From: an uncultured Candidatus Saccharibacteria bacterium
Lineage (GTDB): Bacteria > Patescibacteriota > Doudnabacteria > UBA920
Length of the DNA: 43,559 nt
Reading direction: 5' to 3'
Assembly (NCBI GenBank): GCA_964609785.1
Contig: CAZSSN010000001.1
Coordinates: forward strand, 1-43,559
Below the pieces are notes generated by a model that did no database searches, was not told where the DNA came from, and was given only the letters and a program-made list of their open reading frames with translations. Shown in pieces: positions 1,850 through 16,023 of this stretch. A program made the position numbers and the translations under genes. How positions within the stretch are numbered: position 1 is the first letter of the stretch; each line of letters starts with the position of its first letter.

Positions 1850-1923
1850 TGGGGTATAGCCAAGCGGTAAGGCAAGCGGTTCTGGTCCGCTGATCCCAGG
1901 TTCGAATCCTGGTACCCCAGCCA
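1850..1923 (+). tRNA. tRNA-Gln (anticodon CUG), 74 nt with encoded CCA
   Basis: The cloverleaf is readable by eye. Acceptor TGGGGTA/TACCCCA; D-arm GCC-AAGCGGTAA-GGC; anticodon stem AGCGG/CCGCT with loop TTCTGGT; T-arm CCAGG-TTCGAAT-CCTGG; discriminator G plus CCA. The outline is very close to E. coli tRNA-Gln. Confidence 0.92.
1905..1923 (+). repeat. attL core: 19-bp direct repeat AATCCTGGTACCCCAGCCA (3' end of tRNA-Gln)
   Basis: An exact second copy lies at 18873..18891. Confidence 0.85.
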
Positions 1924-1952
1924 CCTCGTGCTAGCACGAGGAGCGTATAAGG

Positions 1953-1975
1953 ATCGCCGAAGAGGCGATTTTTTG
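1953..1975 (+). terminator. Rho-independent terminator after tRNA-Gln
   Basis: Hairpin ATCGCC-gaaga-GGCGAT followed by TTTTTT. An 18-nt perfect palindrome CCTCGTGCTAGCACGAGG lies just upstream at 1924..1941. Confidence 0.6.
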
Positions 1976-1982
1976 TTATTAT
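1974..1982 (+). promoter_or_regulatory. Extended -10 promoter (TGtTATTAT) 6 nt upstream of ATG 1989
   Basis: Read directly in the sequence. The spacing implies a leaderless transcript. Confidence 0.4.
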
Positions 1983-1988
1983 CAATAT

Positions 1989-2309
1989 ATGAATCAACTT
2001 CCAGAAAAAGGAACAAAAGAATACGCATTAGCAGATGTGCTTTCTAGACCCAATACAATCAATGGTTTGTATAGAAAACTAAAATTGCCTTTGGAATGGG
2101 AACATTTGAAGAAAAAAGATGCTGTCTACATAACACACCTCGCAGATTTGGCAGATAGGGCGATACAAGAAGCTATTGATAGTGGAAAAGATTTGGACAA
2201 CGATAAAGTTCAAGAAGAGTTGTCAGCTGCGGTATATGGAGGTGCGACAGGTGCTTATTTTGCAATGAGCTATTATAAATTTCTACGTTTTTTAGGTTTG
2301 CGTAAATAG
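1989..2309 (+). CDS. Hypothetical protein (island-borne)
   Basis: 106-aa ORF with no recognisable motif, followed by a terminator at 2346..2372. Confidence 0.5.
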   Translation: MNQLPEKGTKEYALADVLSRPNTINGLYRKLKLPLEWEHLKKKDAVYITHLADLADRAIQEAIDSGKDLDNDKVQEELSAAVYGGATGAYFAMSYYKFLRFLGLRK

Positions 2310-2345
2310 ATTTGACGGTTCTAGCCGAAAGTATGCTTAAAAGTC

Positions 2346-2372
2346 AAAAAAACGCCATCTGGGCGTTTTTTT
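2346..2372. terminator. Bidirectional rho-independent terminator between convergent genes
   Basis: AAAAAAACGCC-atctg-GGCGTTTTTTT: an A-run and a T-run flank a GC stem. Confidence 0.7.
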
Positions 2373-2441
2373 GTGTCTCTTTGACATATAAGAGCCTAAC
2401 CAAAATAGATTGACTGTAGTGTTAAAAAACCTTTCAAATTA

Positions 2442-3518
2442 TTACCAGCGTTCCATATTAGAAAATTGTAGATAATAATCAATCCCTTCGGCTGAAATTG
2501 AAGGATTAAATTCTTTTATAACTTTCTCAACCACTTCCTGAGTTATTGGAGTATCTTCCTTAACACCCACTCTTGCAGAATTATCAGTGATTAATTCAAT
2601 GTCTGAACTGACAAAGTTACGTTCTGTCATTTGTGCTAATTTGTCGTAATCAATTTCTCCTTCAAGTGGGCGACCTGACAGGTATAGTTTAAACAGTTCT
2701 CTGCGAGCTTCATAATCTGGTGGTGGAATGAAAATGCGTTTATCCATACGACCTGAACGTAAAATCGCATGGTCTATTTTATCTGGAAAATTTGTAGCAC
2801 CTATTACTAATACTTTATTATCCGAGGCATTATCAAGCTGCATTAAAAACTCGTTTACTTCTTCTTCCTTGTATGCCGAATTAGAATCTAGCTTTTCTCG
2901 CTTGGGTACTAACCCAGATATTTCATCAATGAAAACTATTGATGGGGCTTTTAGACGAGCCATCTCAAAAACTTTTGCAATTTTATTGGAGGTTTCATGA
3001 ATAAATGGACTTCCAACATCTGAGTGCTTAAGTTCAACGAAATTATACTTAAGTTCTTCCGCCAACTTTTTTACTATGAAAGTTTTGCCAACACCAGGTG
3101 GGCCATAAAGTAATATCCCATTAGGCAGACTTAGTTTATATTTTTTATATTTCTCTGGATTTACTAAAGGTTCAATAATATCTCGGATAAAAAGAGCCTT
3201 TAATTCCTTCATACCTGCTACTTCATCAAAGCCTTTACGCACAGTTAATTCTTCAATAATTTGAGTAATACGTTCCTGAGAATGCTCGGATATTATTATA
3301 CCAAGGTACTCTTTGTTACCCACTCGAATAGTTACCAAGTTATATTTACCTTGGCTCACAACTTCCTCTGGACGAATGTTAGTAAACAAGTACAAAAAAC
3401 TCTCATCTGACAGCGAATAGATTTCTGTGAAGAATATTTTATCAATCCGTTTTTTTACAGTTAAACCATCGTTTACTGAGAAGCCGTTAAATAATATTGG
3501 TTTAGTTATTGAAGTCAT
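2442..3518 (-). CDS. Classic-clade AAA+ ATPase (CDC48/FtsH-like single AAA module with a unique N-domain)
   Basis: Walker A GPPGVGKT; Walker B SIVFIDEISG; second region of homology ATNFPDKIDHAILRSGRMDKRIFIPPPD. It overlaps the upstream ORF by 1 nt. Confidence 0.9.
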   Translation of the reverse strand: MTSITKPILFNGFSVNDGLTVKKRIDKIFFTEIYSLSDESFLYLFTNIRPEEVVSQGKYNLVTIRVGNKEYLGIIISEHSQERITQIIEELTVRKGFDEVAGMKELKALFIRDIIEPLVNPEKYKKYKLSLPNGILLYGPPGVGKTFIVKKLAEELKYNFVELKHSDVGSPFIHETSNKIAKVFEMARLKAPSIVFIDEISGLVPKREKLDSNSAYKEEEVNEFLMQLDNASDNKVLVIGATNFPDKIDHAILRSGRMDKRIFIPPPDYEARRELFKLYLSGRPLEGEIDYDKLAQMTERNFVSSDIELITDNSARVGVKEDTPITQEVVEKVIKEFNPSISAEGIDYYLQFSNMERW

Positions 3519-4213
3519 TAGTTTGGTGAACAGTTATTTCTTAAAAAATTATTATAAGTTTCAACCTTTTGATTATAAGAGTCGATCTTGGCATCTAAAC
3601 TATTAAACTGCCTTTCATAAGTAGAATGTTTGAGGTTGTAATCGTCAATTAAGTTATTGTATCTGTTTATGAGGAACTGGGAAGAGTACTCATTTACATA
3701 CATTGAATCAATTTCAGATTTCAATCTATTTAATTCACTTTCTTTTAGGTCAACTGACGATTGATCTGATTCTATCGAACTTTTCTCAAAATCGGATGGC
3801 TCTAATGTGGTTGCTTTGGCGTTGTTTGATAGACTGCAATAATAAACTTTACCATTTTCGTCTGTAAATTTATAGGTTTCTTCTGTAGGAGTACCTGCGG
3901 TTGTTGTTGGTACTGTAGAGGGGGTTGAGTTACCGCTTGAACTTATAGAGCTAGAATCGTCTGGGGTTGTGGCTACTATAACGATGGTGCCTAAAATAAT
4001 CAACGAAGCAATAGCTCCAATAATAAATTCTACCTTTTTTCTACGAGTTTTGTTAACCCACCACCATTTAAGTCTGCCTATAGAATAAGAAGAAGTAGGT
4101 TTTTCTCGACGACTAGGAAATGTTTCTTTCTGATAATGGGGTCGTGTTTTAGAATCCTCAGTTTTGTCTGAGTCGAGAAATTCTAAATCAAATTCTAAAT
4201 GTTCTTTTGCCAT
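3518..4213 (-). CDS. Single-pass membrane protein with Ser/Thr-rich linker and coiled-coil C-terminal (probably extracytoplasmic) domain
   Basis: Basic N-terminus (KTRRKK) followed by TM helix FIIGAIASLIILGTIVIVA, then SSSISSSGNSTPSTVPTTTAGTPT, then heptad-like repeats. Two Cys residues lie in the C-terminal domain. Confidence 0.7.
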   Translation of the reverse strand: MAKEHLEFDLEFLDSDKTEDSKTRPHYQKETFPSRREKPTSSYSIGRLKWWWVNKTRRKKVEFIIGAIASLIILGTIVIVATTPDDSSSISSSGNSTPSTVPTTTAGTPTEETYKFTDENGKVYYCSLSNNAKATTLEPSDFEKSSIESDQSSVDLKESELNRLKSEIDSMYVNEYSSQFLINRYNNLIDDYNLKHSTYERQFNSLDAKIDSYNQKVETYNNFLRNNCSPN

Positions 4214-4215
4214 GC

Positions 4216-5856
4216 TTAATCCTTATTCCTTATAACATAACTTGCGATCCAAAAGAGTATTCCAATTCCATAAAACCAAACGGTAAACCATCCAATGACA
4301 TAGCAAACATTTGCTATCTGAACATTTTGACGAATACGTTTGAACAATGGCATTAATCCACCCCACATATAACAATCTATAAGAATACTCAATGCGTATT
4401 TATCCATATCACCCTCAGCAAACTTCTCGTTTACTTCCTTTTGTAGATTAGCTTTCCACTCATCAATAGTGCTCAAGCTTTTACTAGAAGCTAGTGCGAC
4501 CATATCACTAACTTGTTTGAGAATCTTTTTAACTCCATCTGGATCTAATCCATCAAATACTTCCAAGTTAGCGAATAGGAAATTTCCAGCCTCTGTAAAA
4601 TTTTGTTGTGCTAAGTCATATTGAGTGCTATCTATAAATTCTTTACCTAGTTGCGATTTTTTAAAAGCAAACATAGTAACAGCTAGTTTTTTCTGATTCA
4701 ATAATGCTTTTTCTAAATCCTTATCACTGGTTGGTAATTGTGTATTTATAAGGTCTATTGCTTCTTTAAACTTTTCCTCAGAGATTAAATCTGTGATTGG
4801 ATTTATTGCAGTATTATATTTCTCATTATTCTTTATCGTATTTATGTCTGCTTGTATTTTATGTTCCATACCTACCGAGCCAGCAATCTTCATTGTTATA
4901 GCAAACAAAGCTAGACACTTATTATTAGTGTCCAAGTTATTGTTATAAATATCTAAAATAACACTACGAATTGAGGTGACCGCCTTGTCTCTAATAGTTT
5001 TTGTCTCGCTGTCTTCATATAGACCTAAATCTATAAGAGTATTAAGCTGAATTTGTATTTTGTGAATACCGTCTTTCAACTCCTTTAATTTAACATCCAA
5101 GTCTGTTGTTATTTCCGTAATTTTTATTCGTTCAATGTCTGCGACTATTGAATGAATGTTATTATAAATAGGATTAACAATATCTGAAGTTGCTTTTTCT
5201 CCCTTAACACCAAACTCAGTAGAAAATTCAGTGAAAAAAGAATTGTCATTTTGTTTTTGACTTATTTCGGTGTAGATGTCAGCAAGGTAAGATGTAACAT
5301 GTTTTTCAAAGTCGGCTATTATTTCTGTGCTAGTATTCATGTCATCATGCTTTTTGAAATACTGTCGAAATGTAGCCCAAAATCGATCGCTATCAATCAG
5401 ATCCTTCCAAATCTCTAAAGAGTTTTTTAAATGGCTGGAATTACTAAGATTTTCATTTAGAAGCAGTACGCAATAAAGCAATGCTAAATTTTTCTTATAG
5501 AAAAAAGCTTTAGTGGTTGATTTGGCCCCAGCTAATCTCCATATTTTTATCGCACTCTCATAAGATTTTGAGTTTAATTCTTCAAAGACTTTTTCATCTA
5601 TTGCATCATTTTCTATAAACCAGAAGAAATACTCTCTTATACGTTTTTTAGGCGTGGAAAGGTTTTGTAAAGCTTCCTTTATACTGTATTCTGTCCTAAT
5701 CTTTGATGGATCTAATAAGTCTCCATCATATGACGGAACTTCGTCTATCTTTAATAGTTTTTGAAGCTCATTAGTCCTTTTTAATATATCTCGCTGGGTC
5801 GCGGTAACTGGCAACCCAAGTACGTGATACGAATTATAGAGTAGAGAATTAATCAT
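4216..5856 (-). CDS. J-domain-like (HPD-less) helical protein with C-terminal membrane anchor
   Basis: The N-terminus YHVLGLPVTATQRDILKRTNELQKLL...IKEALQNLSTPKKRIREYFFWF mimics J-domain helices I-IV, but KIDE replaces the HPD position. The C-terminus VCYVIGWFTVWFYGIGILFWIASYVI is hydrophobic. Confidence 0.65.
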   Translation of the reverse strand: MINSLLYNSYHVLGLPVTATQRDILKRTNELQKLLKIDEVPSYDGDLLDPSKIRTEYSIKEALQNLSTPKKRIREYFFWFIENDAIDEKVFEELNSKSYESAIKIWRLAGAKSTTKAFFYKKNLALLYCVLLLNENLSNSSHLKNSLEIWKDLIDSDRFWATFRQYFKKHDDMNTSTEIIADFEKHVTSYLADIYTEISQKQNDNSFFTEFSTEFGVKGEKATSDIVNPIYNNIHSIVADIERIKITEITTDLDVKLKELKDGIHKIQIQLNTLIDLGLYEDSETKTIRDKAVTSIRSVILDIYNNNLDTNNKCLALFAITMKIAGSVGMEHKIQADINTIKNNEKYNTAINPITDLISEEKFKEAIDLINTQLPTSDKDLEKALLNQKKLAVTMFAFKKSQLGKEFIDSTQYDLAQQNFTEAGNFLFANLEVFDGLDPDGVKKILKQVSDMVALASSKSLSTIDEWKANLQKEVNEKFAEGDMDKYALSILIDCYMWGGLMPLFKRIRQNVQIANVCYVIGWFTVWFYGIGILFWIASYVIRNKD

Positions 5857-5858
5857 AG

Positions 5859-8366
5859 TTACTTAGAAGTTATTCCAGCGACACTAGAGCTGATTTTTGA
5901 TTGTTCTTCAGCAGAAAGCATAGTTAAAAGATTTTGAACACAGCGTTTCAATTCATCGGTATCGCCATTTTCCATAGCCTGTTTACCTTTATCTATAAAG
6001 TAATCAGCATCTTTTTGATTACTAAACTGATGATTTCCTTGAGTGATTTCGTTATAATGCCATGCCCAAGTTTGAGGGTTCGAATATATTATTTTTGCAC
6101 CTAGTTCGGAAATTTGCTGAATAACTCTTTGCAATAAAGTTTTGTCTTCGCTCTCAATTGCTTTTTCTCCTTCTTTTTTCAAAACGCTTAAATGGTCATG
6201 GTTTCGTTCTCGATCCCTGATATCTCCAACACCGTCTATGGCTTCCACAATGAGGTCGTATTTTTCTTTAAATTCTGCTATTAGTTGGGGTAGCTCTTTT
6301 CCTTTCTCCAACTTTTCCATGCGAGTTTTTAAATCCTTGAGTTGTTTACTAGCTTTGCGTTTTTCGTCTTCATCAGTATTGCCATGTTTTATGCTTGTTT
6401 CAATAGACTCAATTTCGTATGCGATTTTTTTCTTATCCTCAGTCGTATAAGTATCACTATTTTTTTCAAGTCTAGTTTTCTGCAAAGTCAGGTCTTCATG
6501 TAATCGATCACTGTCTATGGTCTCAGCAACAATAGTGGCACGGACACGGCCAGAAATATCTACCGAGGGAATATAATATTCTACATCAAGTTGACGAGAT
6601 TCATTTATTGTAATTGTTAAATCTATATCTGTACCATCTGGTAAATCATGGGGTAAATCACTTCCTTTAATTCCTAGCTTGCAGATAAAATCGTTGTTGT
6701 TTGGATTATCTGATTCTCCCTCTAAAACTTTAATTGGTAATTCGTTTACATTATCATTTTTGGCTAACTTTCTAGCCAATTGATAAGATTTCGTCTTTTT
6801 TAATGGCAAAGTACTACCACGCTCAAAGAATATATCAAACTTTTCTATTGTTGATCCGCTAAGTAAAGCACTTTTATCTAAAATAGATACACCTACTGTA
6901 TGAGGAATAGGTGCACCTGCAATTGTTAATCCATGAGTAATGCTAAACGACTCTGGATAAACGGGAATAGAATTTCCTTTCTTATCAAATAGGTAAATCC
7001 AAAATAAATTGGTTTTATTCTGCTCTAAAGAAATAGTTTCAATAAGTTTTCCTGAAGCTTTCAATTTAATTTTAGGGCTATTATAGTAACCGCTTTCGCC
7101 CTGAATTTGTATGTAGTAATCTTCAGACTTACCCTCTAGTCCTTTAATATCTCCTGTGATAAGAACATCGGTTTCTGCTGTCATTGGATCATAATCAAGA
7201 ACTAATTCTTTGGCACCACTAGTTCTTGGCTTTTCTTCTTCTAAAATATCTTGTGGAATTCTTTGACCTGCTGCATAAATACAAGCACCCTTTGCAACTA
7301 CAGTAAGGGGGTCTGATGAGCTGTCAATTTCTATTTTCAAAGCTTTTTCCAATTGCTCTCTAACGTAAGGAATTTGAGTTGGTCCACCTACAAGCACGAC
7401 TTTGGAAACCGAGGCTTCTTTAATTCCTGCATCTTTGATAGTTTCTTGTGCTAAATCAATAGTTTTTGCGATAAATGGTTCAATTAACTTTTCAAATTCT
7501 TTTCGACTAAAATCAATAGTCGTGACAATATCTCGTGACGGAATTTCAATTAGCATCGAAGTTGTATCTTCTTGAGACAGACTTATCTTCGCCGTCTCTG
7601 CTTCATATTTTACGTATGATAATATAGACTGGACTTCGCCGTCTTTATTAGATCTATCTAAGTCTGAGAGGTCATACTCCTTTTTAAGTTGGGGAATAAT
7701 AATTTTTTCTACGATAAGCCAGTCAAAGTTTTTGCCCCCCAAAAAGTTATCTCCATTATGACCTAATACACTCAGCACTCCTGCTTTAGAAGAAATCAAT
7801 GCAACATCAAAAGTTCCACCTCCCAAATCGTAGACTAACCAAGTTTCTTCCTTAACATTATTGAACCCATAAGCCATAGCTGCGGCTATGGGTTCTTGTA
7901 GTAAAACGATATGTTTAAAGCCAGCCAAGTTTCCAGCTCTTTTTGTAGCTTCTGCTTGAAGAGTAGAGAAATATGCAGGAATAGTAATTACAGCTGCGGT
8001 GGTGTCAAACTCTGGGTATTTTCGTAAAACATCGGATTTTAAGTTTGTAAGAATTTCTCCAGATATCTCTTCAGCCGTCATATCCTTATTGAGCCGATCA
8101 AAGTGCACGGTTTCAGGAGTTCCCATAAGACGCTTAACTTCTGCCTTATAGTTTTTAATGCTGTCGCTAGAGGAGTCTTTAAATAATTTTTCGTATGCAC
8201 GTCTTCCAACTTCAATATTATTAGCTTTGTTTACTCCAAAAACAGAAGGAGTATACTCGTCTTGGAAGATATTTTTTACCACCTCTGGAATTCCATTTCT
8301 GTTTACAGCTATTTCAGAGTTAGTAGTTCCTAAATCTATACCGATTTGAATATTGTGTGCACTCAT
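5859..8366 (-). CDS. Atypical Hsp70-family ATPase (835 aa) with an inserted domain and a long helical C-terminal extension
   Basis: Hsp70 signatures present: IGIDLGTTNS, ITIPAYFS, LQEPIAAAMAYG, LVYDLGGGTFDVALI, VVLVGGPTQIPYV. SBD-beta-like block LPIKVLEGESDNPNNNDFICKLGIKG..IDLTITINESRQLDV. Confidence 0.92.
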   Translation of the reverse strand: MSAHNIQIGIDLGTTNSEIAVNRNGIPEVVKNIFQDEYTPSVFGVNKANNIEVGRRAYEKLFKDSSSDSIKNYKAEVKRLMGTPETVHFDRLNKDMTAEEISGEILTNLKSDVLRKYPEFDTTAAVITIPAYFSTLQAEATKRAGNLAGFKHIVLLQEPIAAAMAYGFNNVKEETWLVYDLGGGTFDVALISSKAGVLSVLGHNGDNFLGGKNFDWLIVEKIIIPQLKKEYDLSDLDRSNKDGEVQSILSYVKYEAETAKISLSQEDTTSMLIEIPSRDIVTTIDFSRKEFEKLIEPFIAKTIDLAQETIKDAGIKEASVSKVVLVGGPTQIPYVREQLEKALKIEIDSSSDPLTVVAKGACIYAAGQRIPQDILEEEKPRTSGAKELVLDYDPMTAETDVLITGDIKGLEGKSEDYYIQIQGESGYYNSPKIKLKASGKLIETISLEQNKTNLFWIYLFDKKGNSIPVYPESFSITHGLTIAGAPIPHTVGVSILDKSALLSGSTIEKFDIFFERGSTLPLKKTKSYQLARKLAKNDNVNELPIKVLEGESDNPNNNDFICKLGIKGSDLPHDLPDGTDIDLTITINESRQLDVEYYIPSVDISGRVRATIVAETIDSDRLHEDLTLQKTRLEKNSDTYTTEDKKKIAYEIESIETSIKHGNTDEDEKRKASKQLKDLKTRMEKLEKGKELPQLIAEFKEKYDLIVEAIDGVGDIRDRERNHDHLSVLKKEGEKAIESEDKTLLQRVIQQISELGAKIIYSNPQTWAWHYNEITQGNHQFSNQKDADYFIDKGKQAMENGDTDELKRCVQNLLTMLSAEEQSKISSSVAGITSK

Positions 8367-8375
8367 AAATAAAAA

Positions 8376-8888
8376 TTAATTTTTAACTACTATAACTTTA
8401 GCTCTTTTTACTAGTTCTCCACGCACCATTAAAGATGGTTCAAAAGTTTCTTTAATATAAGGCTCAGTCACAGAAGTATCGGTTTCATAATTTAAAACTT
8501 CAACATTTAATCCATCGTTGAATTTTTGACCAGTATAATCAATTATATCAATATCGTGTTTTGATAAATACCTTTTAAACTTACTTACGGAATGAGCAGT
8601 AGCTTTTGAATAATTTTCTGGCAATTGATCAACTTTAGCAAGTCTTGTCTCGAGTCTCCAAACCTCAACTGCTAACTCTAGTATTTCTTCTAAGGCTACG
8701 GAGATATCTAGGAATTTCGGTTGGACTACTGATCTCAATTCATTCTGCAGATCCTTAGACGTTTTTGCTATAGATCTCAAAATTAACTGCTTCAATATTA
8801 AGAGTGCTATTAGTAGAATCACTACTAGTAAAAGAGCTATTAAAAAAATAGTTATGTAAACAGAATTTGTTGAAATAAAGGTACTCAT
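8376..8888 (-). CDS. Membrane-anchored GrpE-like putative nucleotide exchange factor
   Basis: N-terminal TM helix (VYITIFLIALLLVVILLIALLIL). The C-terminal half resembles the GrpE beta domain (DIDIIDYTGQKFNDGLNVEVL....GELVKRAKVIVVK). Confidence 0.55.
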   Translation of the reverse strand: MSTFISTNSVYITIFLIALLLVVILLIALLILKQLILRSIAKTSKDLQNELRSVVQPKFLDISVALEEILELAVEVWRLETRLAKVDQLPENYSKATAHSVSKFKRYLSKHDIDIIDYTGQKFNDGLNVEVLNYETDTSVTEPYIKETFEPSLMVRGELVKRAKVIVVKN

Positions 8889-8979
8889 GTTAGTAGGAAT
8901 TTGTAATTCAATTTGTGTATAATTTCTTATATTGTTTTTAGAAGTTTATGCCTTAGCTATGGCATAAATTACTATTCTA

Positions 8980-9008
8980 ATTGTATCGCTAAACAGTAAT
9001 TCCAGCAA
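8980..9008 (-). promoter_or_regulatory. Promoter of the Hsp70 operon (TTGCTG-N17-TACAAT on the minus strand)
   Basis: -35 at 9008..9003 and -10 at 8985..8980. The ~84-nt 5' UTR contains an 8-bp stem hairpin, TTTATGCC/GGCATAAA, at 8945..8968. Confidence 0.5.
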
Positions 9009-9014
9009 ACAATT

Positions 9015-9037
9015 AAAGGCCGGTGTTGCCGGCCTTT
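9015..9037 (-). terminator. Terminator hairpin downstream of the DUF4352 gene
   Basis: AAAGGCCGG-tgttg-CCGGCCTTT, a perfect 9-bp stem, followed by a T-rich tract on the minus strand. Confidence 0.6.
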
Positions 9038-9042
9038 AATAA

Positions 9043-9618
9043 CTATCTTCCTAAGTCAACCAATATGTTCTTACTGCCCCACATGCTGGCATTATACTGA
9101 AATTGGAGACCTGTAGATCCCTTTTTGATTTCGAATCCTACCCAACCAGTTTTTTTACTTTTTGCAATTACTGCACCGTCTAGTCCTAGTCCTGGATTTT
9201 CTAATGCTTTGTTAGTGACAGCTATTTGATAGCTATTACTTTCACCATCCCTTATAAACATTTGACCTAATGTTGTAACATACTGTTGGCTTGAGCTAGT
9301 ATTCTCCACTGTAACGTTTAAGTTAACCCACTCGTTGCCCTCAGTCGGTTTTGTATACTGACCACCTTGGGAGTACTCAACTTTGTTAACTGTGATAATT
9401 GCATTATCCAGCTTGATTTGATCGCCAACTTTGTAAGTTGTGTCTTTGGTTTCTTCAGCCTGCTTTGAAGTATCTCCATTATTCTCACCAACCTTTTGAG
9501 AATCAGAACTGCCACCGCTTGTCATACCAATGATGATAAAGAAAGCGATTATTACTAGTAACCAGAACCACCAGCGTTTGTAAAATTTTTTCTTCGCTGG
9601 CTTTGCTTGCTCGTCCAT
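9043..9618 (-). CDS. DUF4352-type membrane-anchored extracytoplasmic protein
   Basis: KKKFYKRWWFWLLVIIAFFIIIGM anchor, a low-complexity linker, then an Ig-like block YKVGDQIKLDNAIITVNKVEYS...EWVNLNVTVENTSS typical of DUF4352. Confidence 0.7.
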   Translation of the reverse strand: MDEQAKPAKKKFYKRWWFWLLVIIAFFIIIGMTSGGSSDSQKVGENNGDTSKQAEETKDTTYKVGDQIKLDNAIITVNKVEYSQGGQYTKPTEGNEWVNLNVTVENTSSSQQYVTTLGQMFIRDGESNSYQIAVTNKALENPGLGLDGAVIAKSKKTGWVGFEIKKGSTGLQFQYNASMWGSKNILVDLGR

Positions 9619-9874
9619 ACTTGTTTTTTCTTTCTGCCGACATGGATAACATAAAGCCCCACGCCAGCTGGCTCATTGCTGAGCCCATATCCGTTTCCAG
9701 ATATGACACATCAAAGAGTAACTGAACGCAGGGTTCAATACCTTTGATGTGTTTAACTCGTCGCCATGCCCACAATAGAAACTGTGAGTTTAGGCATTAA
9801 TTGTTAAGGTAATTATAACGATATTTAAGCTATTTATCAATTAGCTAGCTAGGCTTTAAAGCTCGTGACTCCTT

Positions 9875-11200
9875 TCATTCTGACTTAATTGATACAACTT
9901 TATCATTCAATACAATAGTGCCTTTGAGACAATTTAAGAATTCTCGTTTTTCTATATCTGATCCTTCTTGAAGGATAAACTTTGCATAATTTCTAATATC
10001 GATGTCTTTAACAACAATAGGAGTTTTAGTACCTAAAATTATTTGCTGGAACTGCTTATGGCGTTTTACTTCTCGATTAATCTTGTCTTTAATAGGTATC
10101 AACTGAATATCCAATTTTTCTACTAGTGCTTGAAATTGTTCGATAAGCTCAACTTCATTAATGTATCCAGATTTACAATTTGGGTCTTTAGATTTTGCAC
10201 ATCCATAATATACATGTCTATTAACCGATCCGTCTTTCAGCTTTTTAAACTTTTCATCAGCAGATATACCAGAACCACATAATCCACAAAACATTAGTTT
10301 GGTAAAAGCAAATTCTTTTGGCTCCTGTGTTCTCAGTACTTGATTTTTTACTTGTTCCTGAACTTGATCGAATAATTCTTTAGTGATAAGAGGCTCATGT
10401 TTTCCGTTATACCAATTGCCACTTTTTTTCGGGTATTCAAAAACCCCATAGTAGAATGGGGTTTGAAGAATAATGTATATATTGCTCAAGGAAAGATTTT
10501 TATTTCCATAAGCAGTTTTAAAGTTGAGGTCAAACTTGAGCCAGTTATAGATTTTTCTACCACTCCATTTTTCATAAGCAACTTTCTCAAATATCTGTTT
10601 TATAATTGGTGCTCTATCTGGATCAATTAACGTTTCGCATTTCCGATCCATCCGTTTTTCCTTTAGGTATCCAGTTGGTGCAGGTGCTGGCCACAATCCC
10701 ATTTCAACTCTGGTTTTTAATCCTCGCTTAACATTAATACTTTTATTATCGTTTTCAAGTTTAGCCTGCGAACAAAGAATCATTAATAAAAATTTTTCGT
10801 TCGGTGAATTTTTAAAATGTTGTCCGTAGGTTCTAATTTCGACTAATTTTTTCTCATCCATTAAATCAACGACTGAACCAAGATCGCCAGCATTTCTACT
10901 AAGCCGATCAGGTGCCCAAGTTAGTATTCCTGAATATCTACCAGTTCTAACATCCGCCAGTATTTCTTTGAATACTGGTCTTTGCCCAGATTCTTTGGCT
11001 GAATGAGATTCTCGCCTGATATCGATTATATCTAGATTCTCCTTATCGGCTATAGCTAACATTTCTTTAACTTGTGAATCTATTGAAAGGGCTTGTCTTT
11101 CATCTGATTCAGTCGACTTTCTGGCATATAGGCAGTATTTGATCCGAGCAACGGGGGCAAGGGTTTCTGCACTAAACTGAGCTGTTGTATATGTATCCAT
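9875..11200 (-). CDS. Large serine recombinase (resolvase catalytic domain + recombinase domain + zinc ribbon)
   Basis: N-terminal YARKSTESDERQALSIDSQ (catalytic Ser context), ..LTWAPDRLSRN.., and a CGLCGSG...YYGC zinc-ribbon motif. Length 441 aa. Confidence 0.9.
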   Translation of the reverse strand: MDTYTTAQFSAETLAPVARIKYCLYARKSTESDERQALSIDSQVKEMLAIADKENLDIIDIRRESHSAKESGQRPVFKEILADVRTGRYSGILTWAPDRLSRNAGDLGSVVDLMDEKKLVEIRTYGQHFKNSPNEKFLLMILCSQAKLENDNKSINVKRGLKTRVEMGLWPAPAPTGYLKEKRMDRKCETLIDPDRAPIIKQIFEKVAYEKWSGRKIYNWLKFDLNFKTAYGNKNLSLSNIYIILQTPFYYGVFEYPKKSGNWYNGKHEPLITKELFDQVQEQVKNQVLRTQEPKEFAFTKLMFCGLCGSGISADEKFKKLKDGSVNRHVYYGCAKSKDPNCKSGYINEVELIEQFQALVEKLDIQLIPIKDKINREVKRHKQFQQIILGTKTPIVVKDIDIRNYAKFILQEGSDIEKREFLNCLKGTIVLNDKVVSIKSE

Positions 11201-11271
11201 ATATAATTAATGCCAGAGATCACTAGTTTTGCTAAGGCCACTTGTTGATAACTTTTTCTAGCTCAAAATAG

Positions 11272-12780
11272 CTATTTTTCAGTCTCAACATCAACATAAT
11301 CACGATAATATAGCGTATCGTCTTCAAGGCTGTTTCCACCAAAATAAGTGATTAACCATGTAGACTCATTCGCATGCTCATCCATAGTACTATTTATCAG
11401 TAGAGAGAAGGCATCGGCAAGGTCGTCATGTTTTTCAACACCAAATCCTACTAACTGTTCAATTAGTTTTTCACAGCCTTGCCGAGGAAATTTTATAACA
11501 CCAGATTTTATTGAAGTAGAAGTAAGAGCAAGCCTTGTGCGTTTATCACCTTTGGGCTTAACAGCTTCTGCTCGGACTCCATGAACCTCTAACATTTGAG
11601 GTAATGCTTCTTGGTAAGCAACACTTTCTACAAACAACTTATCCATTTGCCCTTTCATTTGAGTATTTCTGAAATTTTTCATTAACTCCACTTGAGCAGG
11701 GAAATTTATTTTTTCCATAATAGGGTTAGGTAAGATATATATTCTAATTTTCTCTGCTCGACCATAAATTCTAGCTGAAACGATTGTGGTATAATCAGCG
11801 GAATCGCTGGTAGAAATAGCTAAGTCGACCCCTGCATAGGTACCACGAAAAGCTCGATGATCAGTGCTCGGTAATTCATCATAATATTGAAACCATTCAG
11901 GGTATATAACTTGGTCGTCGCTCGGAATAATTCTAAGTAAATATTCTCGTTGCCAAGATATTTCACTAGCAATATTCATTTTTTCATCTTCAATTTCTTT
12001 TATAGTTGGGTATTTTCCAGGCCATAAGCAATTATCATTTTCGTCTAGTAATGGGTACTGCTTAAATACTCCTGTAGTTTTGTTTTGTTTTATTTCATCT
12101 TTTATTCGCATTAAAAGGGAATCTTCATGTAATAAATTACCGACTATTATCAAGCGTGTATTTCTGTCGCCAGCTGGGAGAACTTCACCACGAAGCCAGT
12201 TATAAGTTTTTTCCCGACCTTCTCGCGTTTTTGTCGATTGAACATCTTCTACATCATCGCAAATAACCAAATCAGGACGATATTCGTTATGGCGTAATCC
12301 TCGTATACTTTGATCTGTTGAAGCAACTGTAATTCTTGCACCATGTTTGTTAAATACCAAAGAGTGGGAACCCCATTCATCGCTTTCCTCTTGAAATGGC
12401 CCTAAATCTTTTTTTAACAATTCATTATCTTCAAGCTCATTTCTGATATTCATCATATGTTGTTTTGCTTGGGCTTTGGTTTGGCAAAAGATAATACAAA
12501 ACTTCTTTTGCTGTTTTCCTAAAATTGCCCAAATTGGATACGCAGTTGTTATCATGGTAGATTTCCCAGATCCACGGAAAGCTACAACATATAAATTTTC
12601 AACCGCACTTTTTTCTACATGGTGAATAATCTCTTTTTGAAAGTCAGCGGTTTCGTATTTTACATAGTGAGCATAGTAAAAATGGAAAAAGTACAAGAAA
12701 CTATCTTTTGTAATTGAAGTGCGAACAAGCCGATCTTTCATCATCCTATTTACCAGAGCGGTATCTATTAATTTATTCAT
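11272..12780 (-). CDS. terL: Phage terminase large subunit
   Basis: Walker A AFRGSGKST; Walker B DLVICDDVED; RNaseH-like nuclease acidic residues (GVDLAIS..D, ESVAYQ, HDDLADAF). I prefer the start at MNKLID (12780), which overlaps the TerS stop by 8 nt. The ORF track extends it to 12834. Confidence 0.85.
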   Translation of the reverse strand: MNKLIDTALVNRMMKDRLVRTSITKDSFLYFFHFYYAHYVKYETADFQKEIIHHVEKSAVENLYVVAFRGSGKSTMITTAYPIWAILGKQQKKFCIIFCQTKAQAKQHMMNIRNELEDNELLKKDLGPFQEESDEWGSHSLVFNKHGARITVASTDQSIRGLRHNEYRPDLVICDDVEDVQSTKTREGREKTYNWLRGEVLPAGDRNTRLIIVGNLLHEDSLLMRIKDEIKQNKTTGVFKQYPLLDENDNCLWPGKYPTIKEIEDEKMNIASEISWQREYLLRIIPSDDQVIYPEWFQYYDELPSTDHRAFRGTYAGVDLAISTSDSADYTTIVSARIYGRAEKIRIYILPNPIMEKINFPAQVELMKNFRNTQMKGQMDKLFVESVAYQEALPQMLEVHGVRAEAVKPKGDKRTRLALTSTSIKSGVIKFPRQGCEKLIEQLVGFGVEKHDDLADAFSLLINSTMDEHANESTWLITYFGGNSLEDDTLYYRDYVDVETEK

Positions 12781-13189
12781 TTGTTTTCCTTTCGTTAATT
12801 TTCTTAATTGATTTCGATTTAGTAATCGAAGCAAGTTTTAAGGCTTGCCTTACTACTTTTGCTTGGGAGGGAGTAAGAGCCTCGCTTTCTTCGTGAGTGG
12901 TAATCTCAATTTTATTTTTGTAATTATCATTTCTATGGCGTAACCAAAAGCTAATTGCTGGCCAGTTTTTTTCTTTGATCATGGTAAGCATTTGGCTTTC
13001 GCTCATGTCATTTACCAAAGCTACGCCATCGGCTAATGCTTTATCCATTTTCTTTGCAAAAGTAGAATCTTCTTTTCGCCACCTGTAAACACTATTTCTA
13101 GATAGTCCTGTTTTCTCGCAAGCTACTTGAACAATTGGTACTTTTGCCAGTTCTTCAAAAAATTGATTTTGTAATTTATTTTTCTTCAT
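12773..13189 (-). CDS. Terminase small subunit-like HTH protein
   Basis: The HTH segment VACEKTGLSRNSVYRWRKEDSTFAKKMDKAL sits directly upstream of TerL. The start MKKNKLQ at 13189 overlaps the methyltransferase stop by 14 nt. Confidence 0.6.
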   Translation of the reverse strand: MKKNKLQNQFFEELAKVPIVQVACEKTGLSRNSVYRWRKEDSTFAKKMDKALADGVALVNDMSESQMLTMIKEKNWPAISFWLRHRNDNYKNKIEITTHEESEALTPSQAKVVRQALKLASITKSKSIKKINERKTNE

Positions 13190-14459
13190 GGCTTTGAACA
13201 ACCGCTTTGATCCCAGTAAATGATTCAAAACGTTTAATAATAAGATCGCAAAATCTTGGTTCAAGTTCACAGCCATAAACTTTTCTACCTAGTTGCTCAC
13301 CAGCAAGTAGCGTACTGCCTGACCCAAGAAAGCTATCCAAAATAATTTCACCTGGCTTAGTACATCTTTTTATAGCTTTGTCATGTAGTGTTATAGGTTT
13401 TGATGTTGCGTGTTCGTAATTTTTCGAAGGCAACCGTTTAGCAGTCCAAATATCTATAAAGTTGTCTACTTGAGCAATTAGTTCATTGCCTGTACCAAGT
13501 TCCTTATTCATTACTTCGTTTAAATTAGTGACTGATTCAGCCAAGTATGGTCTACCGCGAACTCCATACACGACTGGCTCGTAAACTTTATTAAACGCAA
13601 CTTTTGGTACAGGATTTTGATTATTTTTTAGCCACAAACAAACCCTTTTATTACTTATCCCAAGCGTTCTGTAAACATCTTGTATTAGTCCAATATAGAT
13701 TTGATCGCACCAATAAAATACATGGGTATTGGGTGTGGAAACCGCAAGAGCGGATTTTAAGCTGTCATTAATAAAGGCTCTGTATTCTTCAAAAGTTCTT
13801 TTGTCGTTTACATTTCCACCATAATCTTGATTCCCACCAATTCCGCCATCATAGTTTATTTCTAGGTTATAGACGGGGTCTGAATAGATCATGTCCACAC
13901 GCTCATTTTGCAGTAAACGATTTAAAGTTTCTTGTTTAGTTGAATCACCGCAAATAACTTTATGTTTGCCGAGCGTGATAATATCTCCCAACTTAGTTTT
14001 AGGAACTCTAATTTTTTTCAGTTCTTTGTCGATGTCAAAATTGTCAGGCTTGGTTTCATTGTCCTCATCCCAAAATTTTGCTAACTGTATTTCATCAAAC
14101 CCTGAATTAATAAGAATCTCTAAATCAAAGGATTTTAATGATTCAAAATCCCAGTCACCACCAAGGGCATTGCTGGCAATAAGGTATTCTTTAGATTCGT
14201 CCTTGGTCAATTTGCGATTTGGTATTCGCACATCAATTAATTCACCCCCACGACCTAAAAGTTGCAAAGCCTTAATTCTTTGGTGTCCGGCAAGTATTCG
14301 ACCATTAAGGTCAATTGCTGGTATTTCCACCAGATTATATTTTTTCAAGCTACGCTTAAGATCCGACATTTGTTTATCGGTAATTATTCTTGGGTTGACC
14401 TCTTGGGGGATCAGGTCATCGATCCGTTTTTGCACAGTCTGCCATTGTAATTTCTTCAT
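13176..14459 (-). CDS. ParB-like nuclease domain fused to a beta-class N6/N4 DNA methyltransferase
   Basis: ParB/Srx motif NPRIITDKQMSDLKRSL...ILAGHQRIKAL. Motif IV-like SDPVYN precedes the SAM motif ILDSFLGSGSTLLAGEQLGRK. Confidence 0.85.
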   Translation of the reverse strand: MKKLQWQTVQKRIDDLIPQEVNPRIITDKQMSDLKRSLKKYNLVEIPAIDLNGRILAGHQRIKALQLLGRGGELIDVRIPNRKLTKDESKEYLIASNALGGDWDFESLKSFDLEILINSGFDEIQLAKFWDEDNETKPDNFDIDKELKKIRVPKTKLGDIITLGKHKVICGDSTKQETLNRLLQNERVDMIYSDPVYNLEINYDGGIGGNQDYGGNVNDKRTFEEYRAFINDSLKSALAVSTPNTHVFYWCDQIYIGLIQDVYRTLGISNKRVCLWLKNNQNPVPKVAFNKVYEPVVYGVRGRPYLAESVTNLNEVMNKELGTGNELIAQVDNFIDIWTAKRLPSKNYEHATSKPITLHDKAIKRCTKPGEIILDSFLGSGSTLLAGEQLGRKVYGCELEPRFCDLIIKRFESFTGIKAVVQSHEEK

Positions 14460-14626
14460 ACAATTTTATTAATTATCTTTCTTGATAAAATGTATGGAAA
14501 AACAAAAAGCCTATTCCACACACGAAATAGTCAAAGTTAAAAAAACTTCGTACTATTTCTTGCGCGAAATAGGCATGGCTTTACAGCGATACGCTACTCA
14601 CTTTTTACTACGCAAAAATCTAAATT

Positions 14627-15034
14627 TTAACTACTTAAGTTATCTTTCTCTAGTCTTCTTAATATTCTTTTCCCATGCACGCTTGCCATAAATTCTATGG
14701 TGTCATCGCCAGCGATAATCGGTATTTCATTTGGTATGCTAACAAGTACTTTGTAGCCGTTTTGTTCTCGTTGTCGAATATATTCTAATAATCCAGAGTC
14801 TTTTTTCAGTAGCTCAATAATAGCAGTTCTACTTTCTGAGGTAGTGGCGGTATTATCAATCGTTCCATAAATACGCCCAGGCTTCATTGATCTGAAAGCT
14901 TGCCTTATTTTTTTACCAATGGAAGTAGTTGGTTTTTTGGGTTTAGTATGGACAGCAATATCAGTAATCTGGATTGCTTCATACTTCCAACCCGCTTTCC
15001 TTACAAATGGATTTAACTGTAATTCATATTCCAT
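14627..15034 (-). CDS. Hypothetical protein, first gene divergent from the island repressor
   Basis: 135-aa ORF in the position of an early/lytic-side gene of a phage switch. No motif recognised. Confidence 0.55.
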   Translation of the reverse strand: MEYELQLNPFVRKAGWKYEAIQITDIAVHTKPKKPTTSIGKKIRQAFRSMKPGRIYGTIDNTATTSESRTAIIELLKKDSGLLEYIRQREQNGYKVLVSIPNEIPIIAGDDTIEFMASVHGKRILRRLEKDNLSS

Positions 15035-15121
15035 ATTTTGAGTTTAGCAGACAGGTGTAAAATGTCAAATAGTTATACACAAACCCTTGCATTGGGCAGT
15101 AAACCGTGTTAAATTAATAAC
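15035..15121. promoter_or_regulatory. Divergent back-to-back promoters (genetic-switch region)
   Basis: Plus strand: TTGCAT (15087..15092), N17, TAAATT (15110..15115), 6 nt before ATG 15122. Minus strand: TTGACA (15068..15063), N16, TAAACT (15046..15041), 6 nt before ATG 15034. The repeated GTGTAAAAT / GTGTTAAAT motifs could be operators. Confidence 0.5.
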
Positions 15122-15772
15122 ATGCACATTATCCAAAAACAGCTTTTAGACTTAATTGCTAATAACGAAAGTCTAGGGAAGCTAAGTCTTCGTAAGATCG
15201 CAGAACTAATAGGGGCTAAAAATAAGCCCCAAACAGCCAAATATCACCTCCAAGAGCTTGAAAAAGACGGTTTGATACAAATGAACCTTGAAGAAGGAAT
15301 CATCAAACTGGTTAGAAAAGGGTTTAATAAGGCTAGTTTTAGCCCTCTATATTCTCTCCCTGTGGTAGGCTCGGCAAATTGTGGGCCAGCGACCATTTTT
15401 GCCGAAGAAAATATTGAACAGTACCTCAAGGTGTCTTCCAAGATGATCCCAAGAAACAGAAAAGGTCTATATGCCCTTATAGCCGATGGGCCATCAATGA
15501 ACAGAGCTGAAGTCGAGCCAGGCAAAACTATTCAAAGCGGAGACTTCGCATTAGTAGATAGCCAGTACACTAATTATAAAAATGGCGACATCGTAGTGGC
15601 TGTGATCGATGGGATGGCCACAATTAAACGATATAAAAATGATAAAGCACATAACCAAATAGTGCTCGAAGCAGATTCAACCGAAAAATATTTACCAATA
15701 TTTATTCACGAGGGCGATGACTTCCTCTTAAGTGGAAAAGTTATCGGTATAATTAAAAATCAACTAAATTAA
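15122..15772 (+). CDS. LexA/CI-type repressor (wHTH + peptidase S24), island-encoded
   Basis: N-terminal HTH (LSLRKIAELIGAKNKPQTAKYHLQELEKDGLI). S24 Ser/Lys dyad contexts DGPSMN and ATIKRY. Confidence 0.85.
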   Translation: MHIIQKQLLDLIANNESLGKLSLRKIAELIGAKNKPQTAKYHLQELEKDGLIQMNLEEGIIKLVRKGFNKASFSPLYSLPVVGSANCGPATIFAEENIEQYLKVSSKMIPRNRKGLYALIADGPSMNRAEVEPGKTIQSGDFALVDSQYTNYKNGDIVVAVIDGMATIKRYKNDKAHNQIVLEADSTEKYLPIFIHEGDDFLLSGKVIGIIKNQLN

Positions 15773-15777
15773 AACAT

Positions 15778-16023
15778 ATGGCAAATTACCATGTTACGAA
15801 CCCAAAAAAATCTGACACTTGGCGTGTGGTAAAAGAAAAATCTGACCGTGCTTCTGCCACCGCAAGCACACAAAAAGAAGCTGAAAAAATTGCTAAAGAC
15901 TTATCCGCTAAATCTGGCGGAGGAGAAGTAAGAATTCACAAACCTAATGGTGGCCCTATTCGTGATAGTGATACTGTCGCACCTGGCAACGATCCTAATC
16001 CACCGAAAGATAAAAAGAATTAA
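15778..16023 (+). CDS. DUF2188-family small protein
   Basis: YHVTNPKKSDTWRVVKEKSDRASATASTQKEAEKIAKDLSAKSGGGEVRIHKPNG fits the DUF2188 pattern as I recall it. Confidence 0.65.
   Translation: MANYHVTNPKKSDTWRVVKEKSDRASATASTQKEAEKIAKDLSAKSGGGEVRIHKPNGGPIRDSDTVAPGNDPNPPKDKKN

Follow-up and report, generated by a model that had tools for sequence, protein, structure and literature searches.

A mobile gene cassette of Patescibacteria combining a predicted membrane-tethered Hsp70 set, an AAA+ ATPase and tagged membrane proteins: a specialised Hsp70 system and possibly a new kind of conflict system

Why would an integrated element carry an Hsp70 together with what look like its own membrane-anchored cofactors and an AAA+ ATPase? 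This question is raised by a 43,559-nt contig (CAZSSN010000001.1 of assembly GCA_964609785.1) from an uncultured Candidatus Saccharibacteria bacterium, placed by GTDB in Patescibacteriota; Doudnabacteria; UBA920, the whole of which was analysed and is referred to below as the window. Five adjacent minus-strand open reading frames (ORFs) of this window encode, in the order of their transcription, a GrpE-like protein, an Hsp70, a J-like protein, a membrane protein and an AAA+ ATPase (Table 1). We found that this cassette is a conserved and self-contained module with no fewer than four conserved genes (the window has five); it represents a specialised Hsp70 system and possibly a new kind of conflict system. 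The reading that we favour, tentatively and at nearly even chances, is that it encodes a self-contained, mobile, envelope-coupled Hsp70/AAA+ machine that acts on dedicated tagged membrane clients and is probably a conflict module. Within this reading, we are far surer of a dedicated machine with tagged clients than of defence.

The order GrpE-like, Hsp70, J-like, variable gene or genes, AAA+ was found in every locus fetched, from 43 species genomes and from metagenome contigs. The 43 loci came from a pattern scan of 185,579 species genomes, which is insensitive; a HMMER scan of 1.84 billion representatives with the J-like protein reported 209 clusters (50% identity) at E <= 1e-30 and 868 at E <= 1e-10. 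Counted at 90% clustering, relatives of the J-like protein number more than 277. Nearly all hosts are Patescibacteria (Saccharibacteria, Paceibacterota, Uhrbacteria, Doudnabacteria, Moranibacteria, Peregrinibacteria, Yanofskybacteria and Falkowbacteria), and a few contigs were binned elsewhere. The remote variants L129 and L130 (loci are numbered with the prefix L), on contigs of 42-46% GC, keep the core with 29% identity in the J-like protein and 44-47% in the Hsp70, and the gene order extends to remote variants at 29-45% identity. In the window, the spacers between successive ORFs are 9, 2 and 2 nt long and the last two ORFs overlap by 1 nt. The close spacing, the hairpins on either side and the order shared by all of the approximately 50 loci support the prediction of a single compact gene array, expressed as one unit.

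A preliminary description of this DNA had listed the five ORFs with these spacings and read them as one operon closed by a terminator. It had recognised a transmembrane (TM) helix followed by the C-terminal half of a GrpE, an Hsp70 with its ATPase signatures and a beta-type substrate-binding domain (SBD-beta), a J-like N-terminus that lacks the His-Pro-Asp (HPD) motif and precedes a C-terminal membrane anchor, and a classic AAA+ ATPase with Walker A, Walker B and the second region of homology. It had taken the whole for a private, membrane-anchored Hsp70 set with an unfoldase, located in an integrated element away from the housekeeping hrcA-grpE-dnaK-dnaJ layout and matching no named system. 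The analyses reported here bear out these points, the operon as a predicted unit; other claims of that description stood in part, and are taken up where they arise. As to named systems, the GrpE-like, Hsp70 and J-like proteins had no match in PADLOC-DB v2, and scans of PADLOC, Pfam and the NCBIfam equivalogs returned nothing beyond generic Hsp70, GrpE and AAA matches. The literature searched for Hsp70 with AAA+ proteins, for defence and for Patescibacteria held no description of the cassette, of the tag described below or of the DUF6804 protein encoded next to many copies.

By sequence and predicted fold, the product of the second gene is a full member of the Hsp70 superfamily, with a nucleotide-binding domain (NBD), SBD-beta and lid, and is predicted to be ATPase-competent. 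Its match to Pfam HSP70 extends over aa 8-366 (E 9e-78), and the catalytic residues D11, K78, E158, D180 and T185 are invariant in 28 homologues; homologues across classes are 49-57% identical to the window protein over their whole length. The AlphaFold2 (AF2) model, built with database fragments and of moderate confidence (predicted local distance difference test score, pLDDT, 77; poor at aa 32-94), comprises the NBD, an extra beta domain, SBD-beta, a helical lid and a long helical extension to residue 822. Foldseek aligned this model with full-length DnaK and BiP over 770-800 columns (E 1e-32, target TM-score 0.66), and structure 5NRO was among the matches. By sequence, the protein also weakly matched the SBD-beta strands of DnaK, and a homologue search with the C-terminal half of the protein returned mainly truncated proteins. 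The NCBIfam models of DnaK and HscA scored the protein equally, at 243 bits versus cut-offs of 648 and 822; since both scores are far below cut-off, it is by this measure neither a DnaK nor an HscA equivalog. No second Hsp70 was found within the window. At aa 155-161 the window protein reads VLLQEPI, of which LLQEPI is invariant in the 28 homologues, and the DnaK counterpart is RIINEPT. In DnaK this segment touches the HPD loop of the J domain via R167, N170 and T173.

The genes on both sides of the Hsp70 gene encode its putative cofactors. In the GrpE-like protein, a predicted membrane-anchored nucleotide-exchange factor, a TM helix and a linker take the place of the long dimerising helix of the N-terminal half, and the C-terminal half is made of a helix bundle and a beta domain. 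This half matched positions 76-165 of the Pfam GrpE profile (PF01025) with an E of 1.8e-5 and 24.9 bits, slightly below the cut-off of 25.8, and 16 of 23 family members matched the same family at E <= 0.01, the best at 2.8e-9. When the family profile was compared with PDB sequences it found no GrpE, chance matches only. The gene was found in 44 loci and always adjoins the Hsp70 gene.

The J-like protein of the window was assigned no Pfam family. An hhalign comparison of a profile of the family's N-terminal 92 residues with a J-domain profile gave a probability of 95.1% (E 3e-8, 60 columns); the comparison is computed, but its reference J domains are a provisional input and serve as a lead. Searched against PDB chains, the family profile matched solely the J domains of DNAJC5 (E 0.3), and among 61 relatives 10 weakly matched Pfam DnaJ (best E 0.008) and 17 matched TPR_2. 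The AF2 model (pLDDT 84.8) is an all-alpha TPR-like solenoid with a long C-terminal TM helix, for which Foldseek found generic TPR solenoids only. None of the 61 aligned members, nor any of the 10 remote ones, has the HPD motif: the YHPD of J domains aligned to Y43-D-x-D46, in which Asp alone is retained and His and Pro are lost. It is possible that the altered J-contact segment of the Hsp70 co-evolved with this loss in its partner. Pfam searches of the window protein and its relatives detected neither a Zn finger nor a DnaJ_C or other C-terminal domain of DnaJ.

The succession of GrpE-like, Hsp70 and J-like genes resembles grpE-dnaK-dnaJ, and the cassette might therefore be an ordinary housekeeping operon that looks odd in a fast-evolving, reduced genome. 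We consider this highly improbable, given an Hsp70 that scores far below the equivalog cut-offs and a J-like protein devoid of HPD, Zn finger and DnaJ C-terminal domains, and given also the location of the genes, which lie within attachment (att) site-delimited foreign DNA of lower GC and belong to a patchily distributed module that has moved as a unit and is sometimes decayed. The assignments are instead those of a predicted membrane-tethered set of Hsp70, GrpE-like and J-like proteins, in which the two cofactors carry the membrane anchors and which is always paired with the AAA+ ATPase.

This ATPase matched Pfam PF00004 with an E of 2e-37, and its best PDB match was the D2 ring of VAT/Cdc48/p97 (domain E 1e-48). 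Its Walker A (GPPGVGKT), Walker B (IVFIDE) and second region of homology with arginine fingers are intact, and it has an aromatic pore loop, in which PFIH aligned to KWVG of VAT D2 and F/Y is conserved in the sampled family sequences (five shown). The ATPase is a single ring predicted to be a threading-competent unfoldase, preceded by an N-domain of about 95 residues that is conserved in the family and has no assigned family of its own. Among PADLOC models it matched only the generic AAA models of IetA and TRIP13 (IetA 3e-30), and NCBIfam IteA scored 90 bits versus a cut-off of 510, with CDC48, PAN and FtsH scoring higher. An assignment as IetA, the AAA+ ATPase that forms the IetAS system with the protease IetS, was rejected, as the similarity is a score generic to the classic AAA clade and the cassette has no IetS-like protease. 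ClpB is a two-ring Hsp100, the M-domain of which binds DnaK. The cassette and Hsp70-ClpB/Hsp104 have in common that Hsp70 occurs together with an AAA+ threading motor, but the cassette protein has a single Cdc48-D2-like ring with a novel N-domain, is genetically linked to its Hsp70 and is predicted to be membrane-associated via its partners. It was rejected as an Hsp100/ClpB disaggregase, having one AAA module in 358 aa rather than two rings and an M-domain.

What could such a machine act on? A candidate answer is provided by the variable gene or genes between the J-like and AAA+ genes, one or two in each tagged cassette. Their products fall into a coiled-coil type (28 loci, including the window), a type with a Cys-rich ectodomain (9), a Yip1-domain type (7) and an RDD-family type (5); in L001 an additional RDD-family gene sits after the AAA+ gene. 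All of these membrane proteins start with a short acidic motif, h-x-h-D-L-[D/E]-F-L-D (LxhDLEFLD), at residues ~5-17, which in the fourth gene of the window is the peptide MAKEHLEFDLEFLDSD. A strict regular expression for this tag had 36 N-terminal matches among 977 genes of cassette loci, all of them in cassette-internal variable genes. Shuffled controls averaged 0.095 matches and never exceeded 2, and the expression had no match in 965 genes of 80 control loci. The tagged partners are predicted to be N-in/C-out proteins with extracytoplasmic domains. In the window protein two conserved Cys bracket the coiled-coil ectodomain; its TM helix, Ser/Thr-rich linker and coiled coil had been recognised at the outset, but that it belongs to an interchangeable tagged set, and that there are fusions to the scaffold, had been missed.

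These fusions concern the J-like protein. Nine Saccharibacteria cassettes have no tagged gene. Their J-like proteins, of 607-624 aa, bear a Ser-rich linker and a Cys-bracketed coiled coil appended behind the TM helix. Coiled-coil or Cys-rich ectodomains are fused at the same place in other J-like relatives from several lineages; the fusions apparently arose independently. Since an ectodomain is joined to the J-like protein where a tagged gene is missing, we infer that the J-like scaffold and the tagged proteins form a working complex; this is the main argument for such a complex. The tagged proteins are also the best candidates for dedicated clients, sensors or effectors.

In the mechanism that we propose, the Hsp70 machine would be held at the cytoplasmic face of the membrane by its anchored cofactors. 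The scaffold would dock the tagged proteins and present their cytoplasmic tails to the Hsp70, which would cycle with its own exchange factor, and Hsp70 and the AAA+ ring would then remodel, hold or extract the tagged membrane proteins. Extracytoplasmic domains, such as the coiled coil of the window protein or the LysM domain that a remote variant has on its GrpE-like protein, may couple the machine to events at the envelope. Judged by position and neighbours, the likeliest role of such a machine would be inter-element conflict: exclusion at the level of the envelope or abortive-infection defence against phages, to the benefit of the carrier element and its host.

The same partners could be viewed as surface proteins of the cell. 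The cassette would then serve cell-surface biogenesis or turnover in Patescibacteria, inserting, processing or retracting surface proteins (pilin-like or related to episymbiosis), and would be mobile incidentally. The variable partners are all membrane proteins with ectodomains, N-in/C-out like prepilins; a gene of the prepilin-peptidase family Peptidase_A24 overlaps the AAA+ stop codon in six Saccharibacteria long-form cassettes, where the two are translationally coupled; and a wall-binding LysM domain is found on one GrpE-like variant. This explanation appears improbable to us, as the cassette is rare and patchy by the counts given above, is exchanged as a module between elements and is pseudogenised in two loci, and a pilin-type cleavage motif was not evident in the tagged proteins inspected. 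In the two decayed copies the cassette is split into many short ORFs (L023 900-5700, L035 600-7100), which shows that it is dispensable.

Further membrane proteins accompany the favoured machine in some loci. A DUF6804 gene for a small multi-TM protein of ~103 aa lies directly 3' of the AAA+ gene in 23 loci (e.g., L003 13336-13668) and is missing from the window. Besides the Peptidase_A24 genes (Table 1), an S49 (SppA-like) peptidase is encoded two genes further on in five loci with cassettes of the Yip1 or Cys-rich type. The peptidases hint that membrane proteolysis is an occasional part of the system.

We turn now to the mobility of the cassette. It lies between two exact copies of a 19-nt repeat (AATCCTGGTACCCCAGCCA), one at the 3' end of a tRNA-Gln gene and one at 18873-18891, from which we place the limits of an element of ~17 kb at ~1924..18891. 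GC content is 32-39% between the repeats versus ~40-44% in most flanking 1-kb windows. Together with the large serine recombinase, these features confirm an integrated element. The element further encodes an S24 repressor, the methylase ORF belongs to a cluster whose members in relatives have a ParB-like N-terminus, and no capsid genes were seen; the carrier looks like a tRNA-integrating, satellite-like element. DNA similarity between the window and L005 (75%) covers exactly 2442..8846, and the flanks are unrelated, with 31% identity between the recombinases. Conversely, L025 has a recombinase 76% identical to that of the window, the same tRNA-Gln target and a collinear backbone, and its cassette is much more diverged and inverted relative to the shared backbone, an inversion also seen in L091. 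The window Hsp70 is 56-57% identical to Parcubacteria copies versus 49-51% to the other Saccharibacteria type, and a serine recombinase was found within 10 kb in 24 of 49 cassette loci. These comparisons point to a discrete, mobile and horizontally exchanged module that travels as accessory cargo.

A scan of metagenomes with the recombinase reported more than 600 matching stretches, at least 491 of them with confirmed relatives, and the best 80 loci (L049-L128, recombinase 67-83% identical) were used to survey the cargo slot. Their backbone consists of an S24 repressor, a small ORF, a methylase, TerS-like and TerL-like proteins, the recombinase, variable cargo and a tRNA gene (Gln, Trp, Ser or Asn). 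The Hsp70 cassette occupies the slot in only one of the 80 (L091). These figures bear on the possibility that the cassette serves the life cycle of the element: when the element is induced, packaged or transferred, or exploits a helper, the machine would move or remodel proteins, or structures for DNA entry or exit, at the membrane. Hsp70 import motors such as PAM and Sec63-BiP pull polypeptides through membranes, and a tethered Hsp70 with an HPD-less J-like protein and a GrpE-like factor parallels the motor of mtHsp70, Pam16 and Mge1; the carrier is moreover a capsid-less element with TerL and TerS, and about half of the loci have a serine recombinase nearby. Yet 79 of the 80 sister elements have unrelated cargo instead, so the cassette is not needed for the life cycle of the element. 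It also occurs in several unrelated contexts and element types and has no translocon-like partner and no HPD-bearing J protein, and searches for its J-like family found nothing in 50,697 phage records or in 72,556 plasmid records, and a single contig (L048) in IMG/VR. By analogy with the motors a life-cycle function can be imagined, but we hold it to be improbable.

The slot and the neighbours of other copies bear also on the conflict role that our favoured reading assigns to the machine. The 100 proteins of slot cargo are mostly type I restriction-modification subunits, type IIG enzymes with Eco57I/TaqI_C domains, ResIII and SNF2 helicases with PLD nucleases, and mad2, AbiEii-like AAA_21 and HerA proteins. 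The element of the window itself has a ThsB-type TIR gene. Elsewhere the cassette has as neighbours a SMODS and SLATT pair (CBASS-like), an OLD-family protein with a GajB-like helicase (Gabija-like), an AAA_13 protein, a DUF1016 nuclease and a kinase, and a Fic/SoFic protein, an MvaI/BcnI endonuclease and methylases. It is from this predominance of restriction-modification in the slot of related elements and from these defence-type neighbours that a role in conflict, as defence or exclusion, is inferred. The preliminary description had also supposed a conflict system, with the Hsp70 perhaps as sensor and the AAA+ ATPase as effector or the other way round, a conjectural assignment. The more specific claim of a first anti-phage or exclusion system in which a private Hsp70 cycle and an AAA+ ATPase control swappable tagged TM sensors or effectors, and which spreads among elements of Patescibacteria, is possible but rather doubtful.

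A live rival is that the cassette is a mobile module for protein quality control or stress tolerance, which protects or clears membrane proteins under heat, metal or envelope stress and in which the tagged proteins are co-factors or stress sensors. Its logic would be comparable to that of the transmissible heat-resistance and protein quality control islands of proteobacteria, which carry ClpG/ClpK, small heat-shock proteins and FtsH. Every catalytic part of the cassette comes from a genuine chaperone or unfoldase family, the same slot in related elements is sometimes taken by copper ATPases, multicopper oxidases, HMA and DsbA/thioredoxin proteins, and the S49 and A24 membrane peptidases after the AAA+ gene in some cassettes are reminiscent of a split FtsH-like system of extraction and degradation. 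On the other hand, small heat-shock proteins, ClpB and ClpG are missing as partners, there is no HrcA signal, and the CIRCE heat-shock operator was absent from the window with up to 3 mismatches allowed. The loss of HPD in every J-like member is atypical of a general refolding machine, the dedicated and diversifying tagged partners suggest specific clients rather than general proteostasis, and defence genes, restriction-modification foremost, dominate the slot and recur as neighbours. We regard a stress module as unlikely, though clearly less so than the housekeeping, surface or life-cycle explanations.

Several points weigh against a tagged-client machine with a role in conflict. The copper-resistance genes (HMA, E1-E2 ATPase, multicopper oxidase) and DsbA/thioredoxin genes were seen in the slot of several sister elements, which makes the location a better argument for an accessory role than for defence in particular. 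Roughly half of the loci lack a recombinase within 10 kb, and the genes next to the cassette are mostly unannotated. No recognisable toxic effector (nuclease, NADase or pore-former) is encoded in the cassette, and the Yip1, RDD and coiled-coil proteins have no known activity. With HPD gone and the residues corresponding to R167, N170 and T173 of DnaK replaced, the effect of the J-like protein on the ATPase may be stimulation or restraint. As to the tag, it is from the fusions only that docking on the scaffold, and not on the SBD of the Hsp70 or the N-domain of the AAA+ ATPase, is deduced; that N-domain is conserved in tagged and tag-less cassettes alike, which speaks neither for nor against it as the receptor of the tag. 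An acidic tag is also unlike the classical peptides bound by DnaK.

How does the cassette compare with known systems that use an Hsp70? In its presumed workings it comes nearest to specialised Hsp70 systems of the HscC-DjlC kind and to membrane-tethered Hsp70 motors (PAM), with an AAA+ ring coupled to the Hsp70 as in Hsp70-ClpB, yet it departs from each of these in defining features. Kluck and co-workers reportedly described E. coli HscC in 2002 as a specialised Hsp70 system. Like HscC with DjlC, the cassette has a sporadic, non-housekeeping Hsp70 with a dedicated partner that has a J-type domain at its N-terminus and is anchored in the membrane by its C-terminus. HscC, which together with the tail-anchored J-proteins DjlC and DjlB forms such a specialised system, is 550-580 aa long with deletions and is GrpE-independent (PMC8215388), whereas the cassette Hsp70, at 835 aa, has an additional beta domain and an extended helical tail and comes with a GrpE-like factor of its own; with these insertions and a GrpE-like gene always adjacent, an assignment as an HscC-type Hsp70 was rejected. 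In addition, DjlC has a functional HPD and the J-like partner has none, and the HscC system as reviewed consists of HscC with DjlB/DjlC only, with no AAA+ protein or tagged clients described (PMC8215388). The presequence translocase-associated motor (PAM) of mitochondria, made of mtHsp70, Pam18, Pam16, Tim44 and Mge1, resembles the cassette by analogy only, in a tethered Hsp70 cycle with a GrpE-type factor and the HPD-less J-like Pam16; the cassette differs from it in having no equivalent of the HPD-bearing Pam18, no translocon and no Tim44, in its AAA+ partner and in its location on a bacterial mobile element.

Two systems from the conflict literature are closer in context. GAP1-N2 GTPase systems of actinobacteria and firmicutes combine TRAFAC GTPases, and sometimes tubulin, with HSP70, GrpE and DnaJ-fused FNIII proteins (Kaur et al., 2020, PMC7159879). 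They are likewise a predicted conflict system that recruits an Hsp70, GrpE and a J-type cofactor; the cassette differs by its AAA+ ATPase, its HPD-less J-like scaffold, its membrane tethering and its tagged proteins, and no recurrent GTPase family was found among cassette neighbours. CnuD of CoCoNuT systems is an Hsp70-like protein with degenerate Walker-type motifs, encoded beside McrBC-type GTPases and HEPN RNases (PMC11090510), and is thus another homologue of the Hsp70 NBD and SBD inside a defence locus. In the cassette, by contrast, the ATPase residues of the Hsp70 are invariant, co-chaperones and an AAA+ ATPase are present, and there is no McrBC.

The remaining features of the locus are listed in Table 1. 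Upstream of the cassette, the TTGCTG-N17-TACAAT element that had been called a promoter is present as described and is a candidate only: the -35 fits the consensus in only 3 of 6 bases, a consensus scan missed the site, and the region shows no excess of promoter-like sites (34 versus 28.4 in shuffles). By its position a promoter here is plausible. The inverted repeat in the leader could be an operator or an RNA hairpin, and a comparison of seven upstream regions found no conserved inverted repeat. In 11 loci an XRE-type helix-turn-helix (HTH) gene of ~70 aa stands in front of the cassette, whereas in the window no regulator gene adjoins it. A gene for a DUF4352 membrane or extracellular protein (9043-9618, minus strand), with a terminator of its own, separates the recombinase gene from the cassette. 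In four sister elements (L054, L065, L074, L097) a DUF4352 gene fills a small slot that has TerL on one side and the recombinase on the other, and such a gene is also found beside the cassette in L043.

Several other observations concern variants, neighbours and flanks. In L129 the product of a gene at 4492-5406 begins with the GrpE-like domain and continues through a TM helix and a coiled coil to an extracellular LysM domain; upstream is a gene for a lipoprotein-like product whose ectodomain has the pattern 'YNxLVxxYN'. In L130 (3183-10736) the AAA+ gene has a divergent orientation, and the 911-aa J-like protein has a Zn-ribbon and additional TPR regions. In L048 (8-3795) an OLD-family protein is encoded directly upstream of the cassette and its gene is followed by that of a UvrD/GajB-like helicase, a Gabija-like pair; the Toprim region of this OLD protein matched a Xanthomonas class 2 OLD with an E of 7e-4. 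The element of the window has a second cargo arm (15947-18638, plus strand), which had been described as TIR/HEPN cargo. A profile match confirmed the TIR protein, and near its gene no profile supported a HEPN domain. The TIR and 8xMP pair recurs in sister elements L059 and L085, and the arm also holds two unannotated ORFs of 362 and 190 aa, the former recurring in at least five other elements. The first host gene past attR (18982-21612, plus strand) encodes a surface-type protein of 876 aa with C-type lectin, Big_5, purple-acid-phosphatase-N and two peptidoglycan-binding domains.

Table 1. Coordinates of the cassette, its flanking signals and the carrier element in the window; the last row refers to other loci, in their own coordinates.
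Feature	Position	Strand	Remarks
Gene 1, predicted membrane-anchored GrpE-like nucleotide-exchange factor, 170 aa	8376..8888	-	N-terminal TM helix, then C-terminal half of GrpE
Gene 2, atypical complete Hsp70, 835 aa	5859..8366	-	NBD 1-366, inserted beta domain ~386-478, SBD-beta 491-609, helical lid and extension 619-822
Gene 3, tail-anchored J-like scaffold, 546 aa	4216..5856	-	J-like domain aa ~6-80, TPR-like alpha-solenoid, C-terminal TM helix
Gene 4, tagged single-pass membrane protein, 231 aa	3518..4213	-	Cytoplasmic N-terminal tag, TM helix, Ser/Thr-rich linker, coiled-coil ectodomain
N-terminal tag LEFDLEFLD, residues 6-14 of gene 4	4172..4198	-	Common to variable membrane proteins of cassettes
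Gene 5, single-ring classic-clade AAA+ ATPase, 358 aa	2442..3518	-	~95-aa N-domain and Cdc48/VAT D2-like ATPase module
Terminator hairpin of upstream DUF4352 gene, 12 bp, GC-rich	9012..9040	-	Upstream limit of predicted cassette transcription unit
Candidate promoter TTGCTG-N17-TACAAT	8980..9008	-	Read from sequence; directly after the 9040..9012 hairpin
18-nt inverted repeat, no spacer	8939..8974		5' leader, between putative -10 and start codon of gene 1
Bidirectional terminator-like hairpin	2345..2373		A and T runs on flanks; closes cassette
tRNA-Gln(CTG)	1850..1923	+	Last 19 nt (1905-1923) = attL
attR	18873..18891	+	Exact 19-nt copy of tRNA-Gln 3' end
Large serine recombinase	9875..11200	-	Pfam Resolvase, Recombinase, Zn_ribbon_recom
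Backbone: TerL-like, TerS/HTH-like (weak profile matches), N6/N4 DNA methylase	11272..14459	-	Same order in related elements
ThsB-type TIR protein (ThsB_TIR)	15947..16441	+	Profile match; second cargo arm
8xMP octameric-membrane-protein family member	16445-16972	+	Second cargo arm
Peptidase_A24 genes overlapping the AAA+ gene, examples	L004 12948-13607; L018 12903-13565		Also L020, L022, L027, L045

To our knowledge, HscA is the only one among bacterial DnaK derivatives with a clear job, and reviews describe these derivatives as largely unexplored (PMC13580251, PMC8215388). The cassette family is large, has fixed partners and a membrane address, and carries in its tag an explicit candidate client code, which makes its function directly testable. 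An HPD-less J-like domain alongside an Hsp70 with changed J-contact residues offers a natural example for studies of the Hsp70 mechanism. The carrier family, abundant capsid-less integrative elements with TerL and TerS in Patescibacteria metagenomes, has a cargo hotspot that can be mined for further systems. If the role in defence or exclusion is true, the cassette would add a mechanism acting on proteins of the envelope to a field dominated by systems that act on nucleic acids and nucleotides, and would do so in Patescibacteria, the phage interactions of which are barely explored. In these bacteria, were the anti-phage or exclusion reading to hold, a folding machinery would read the status of the envelope or of infection and execute the response.

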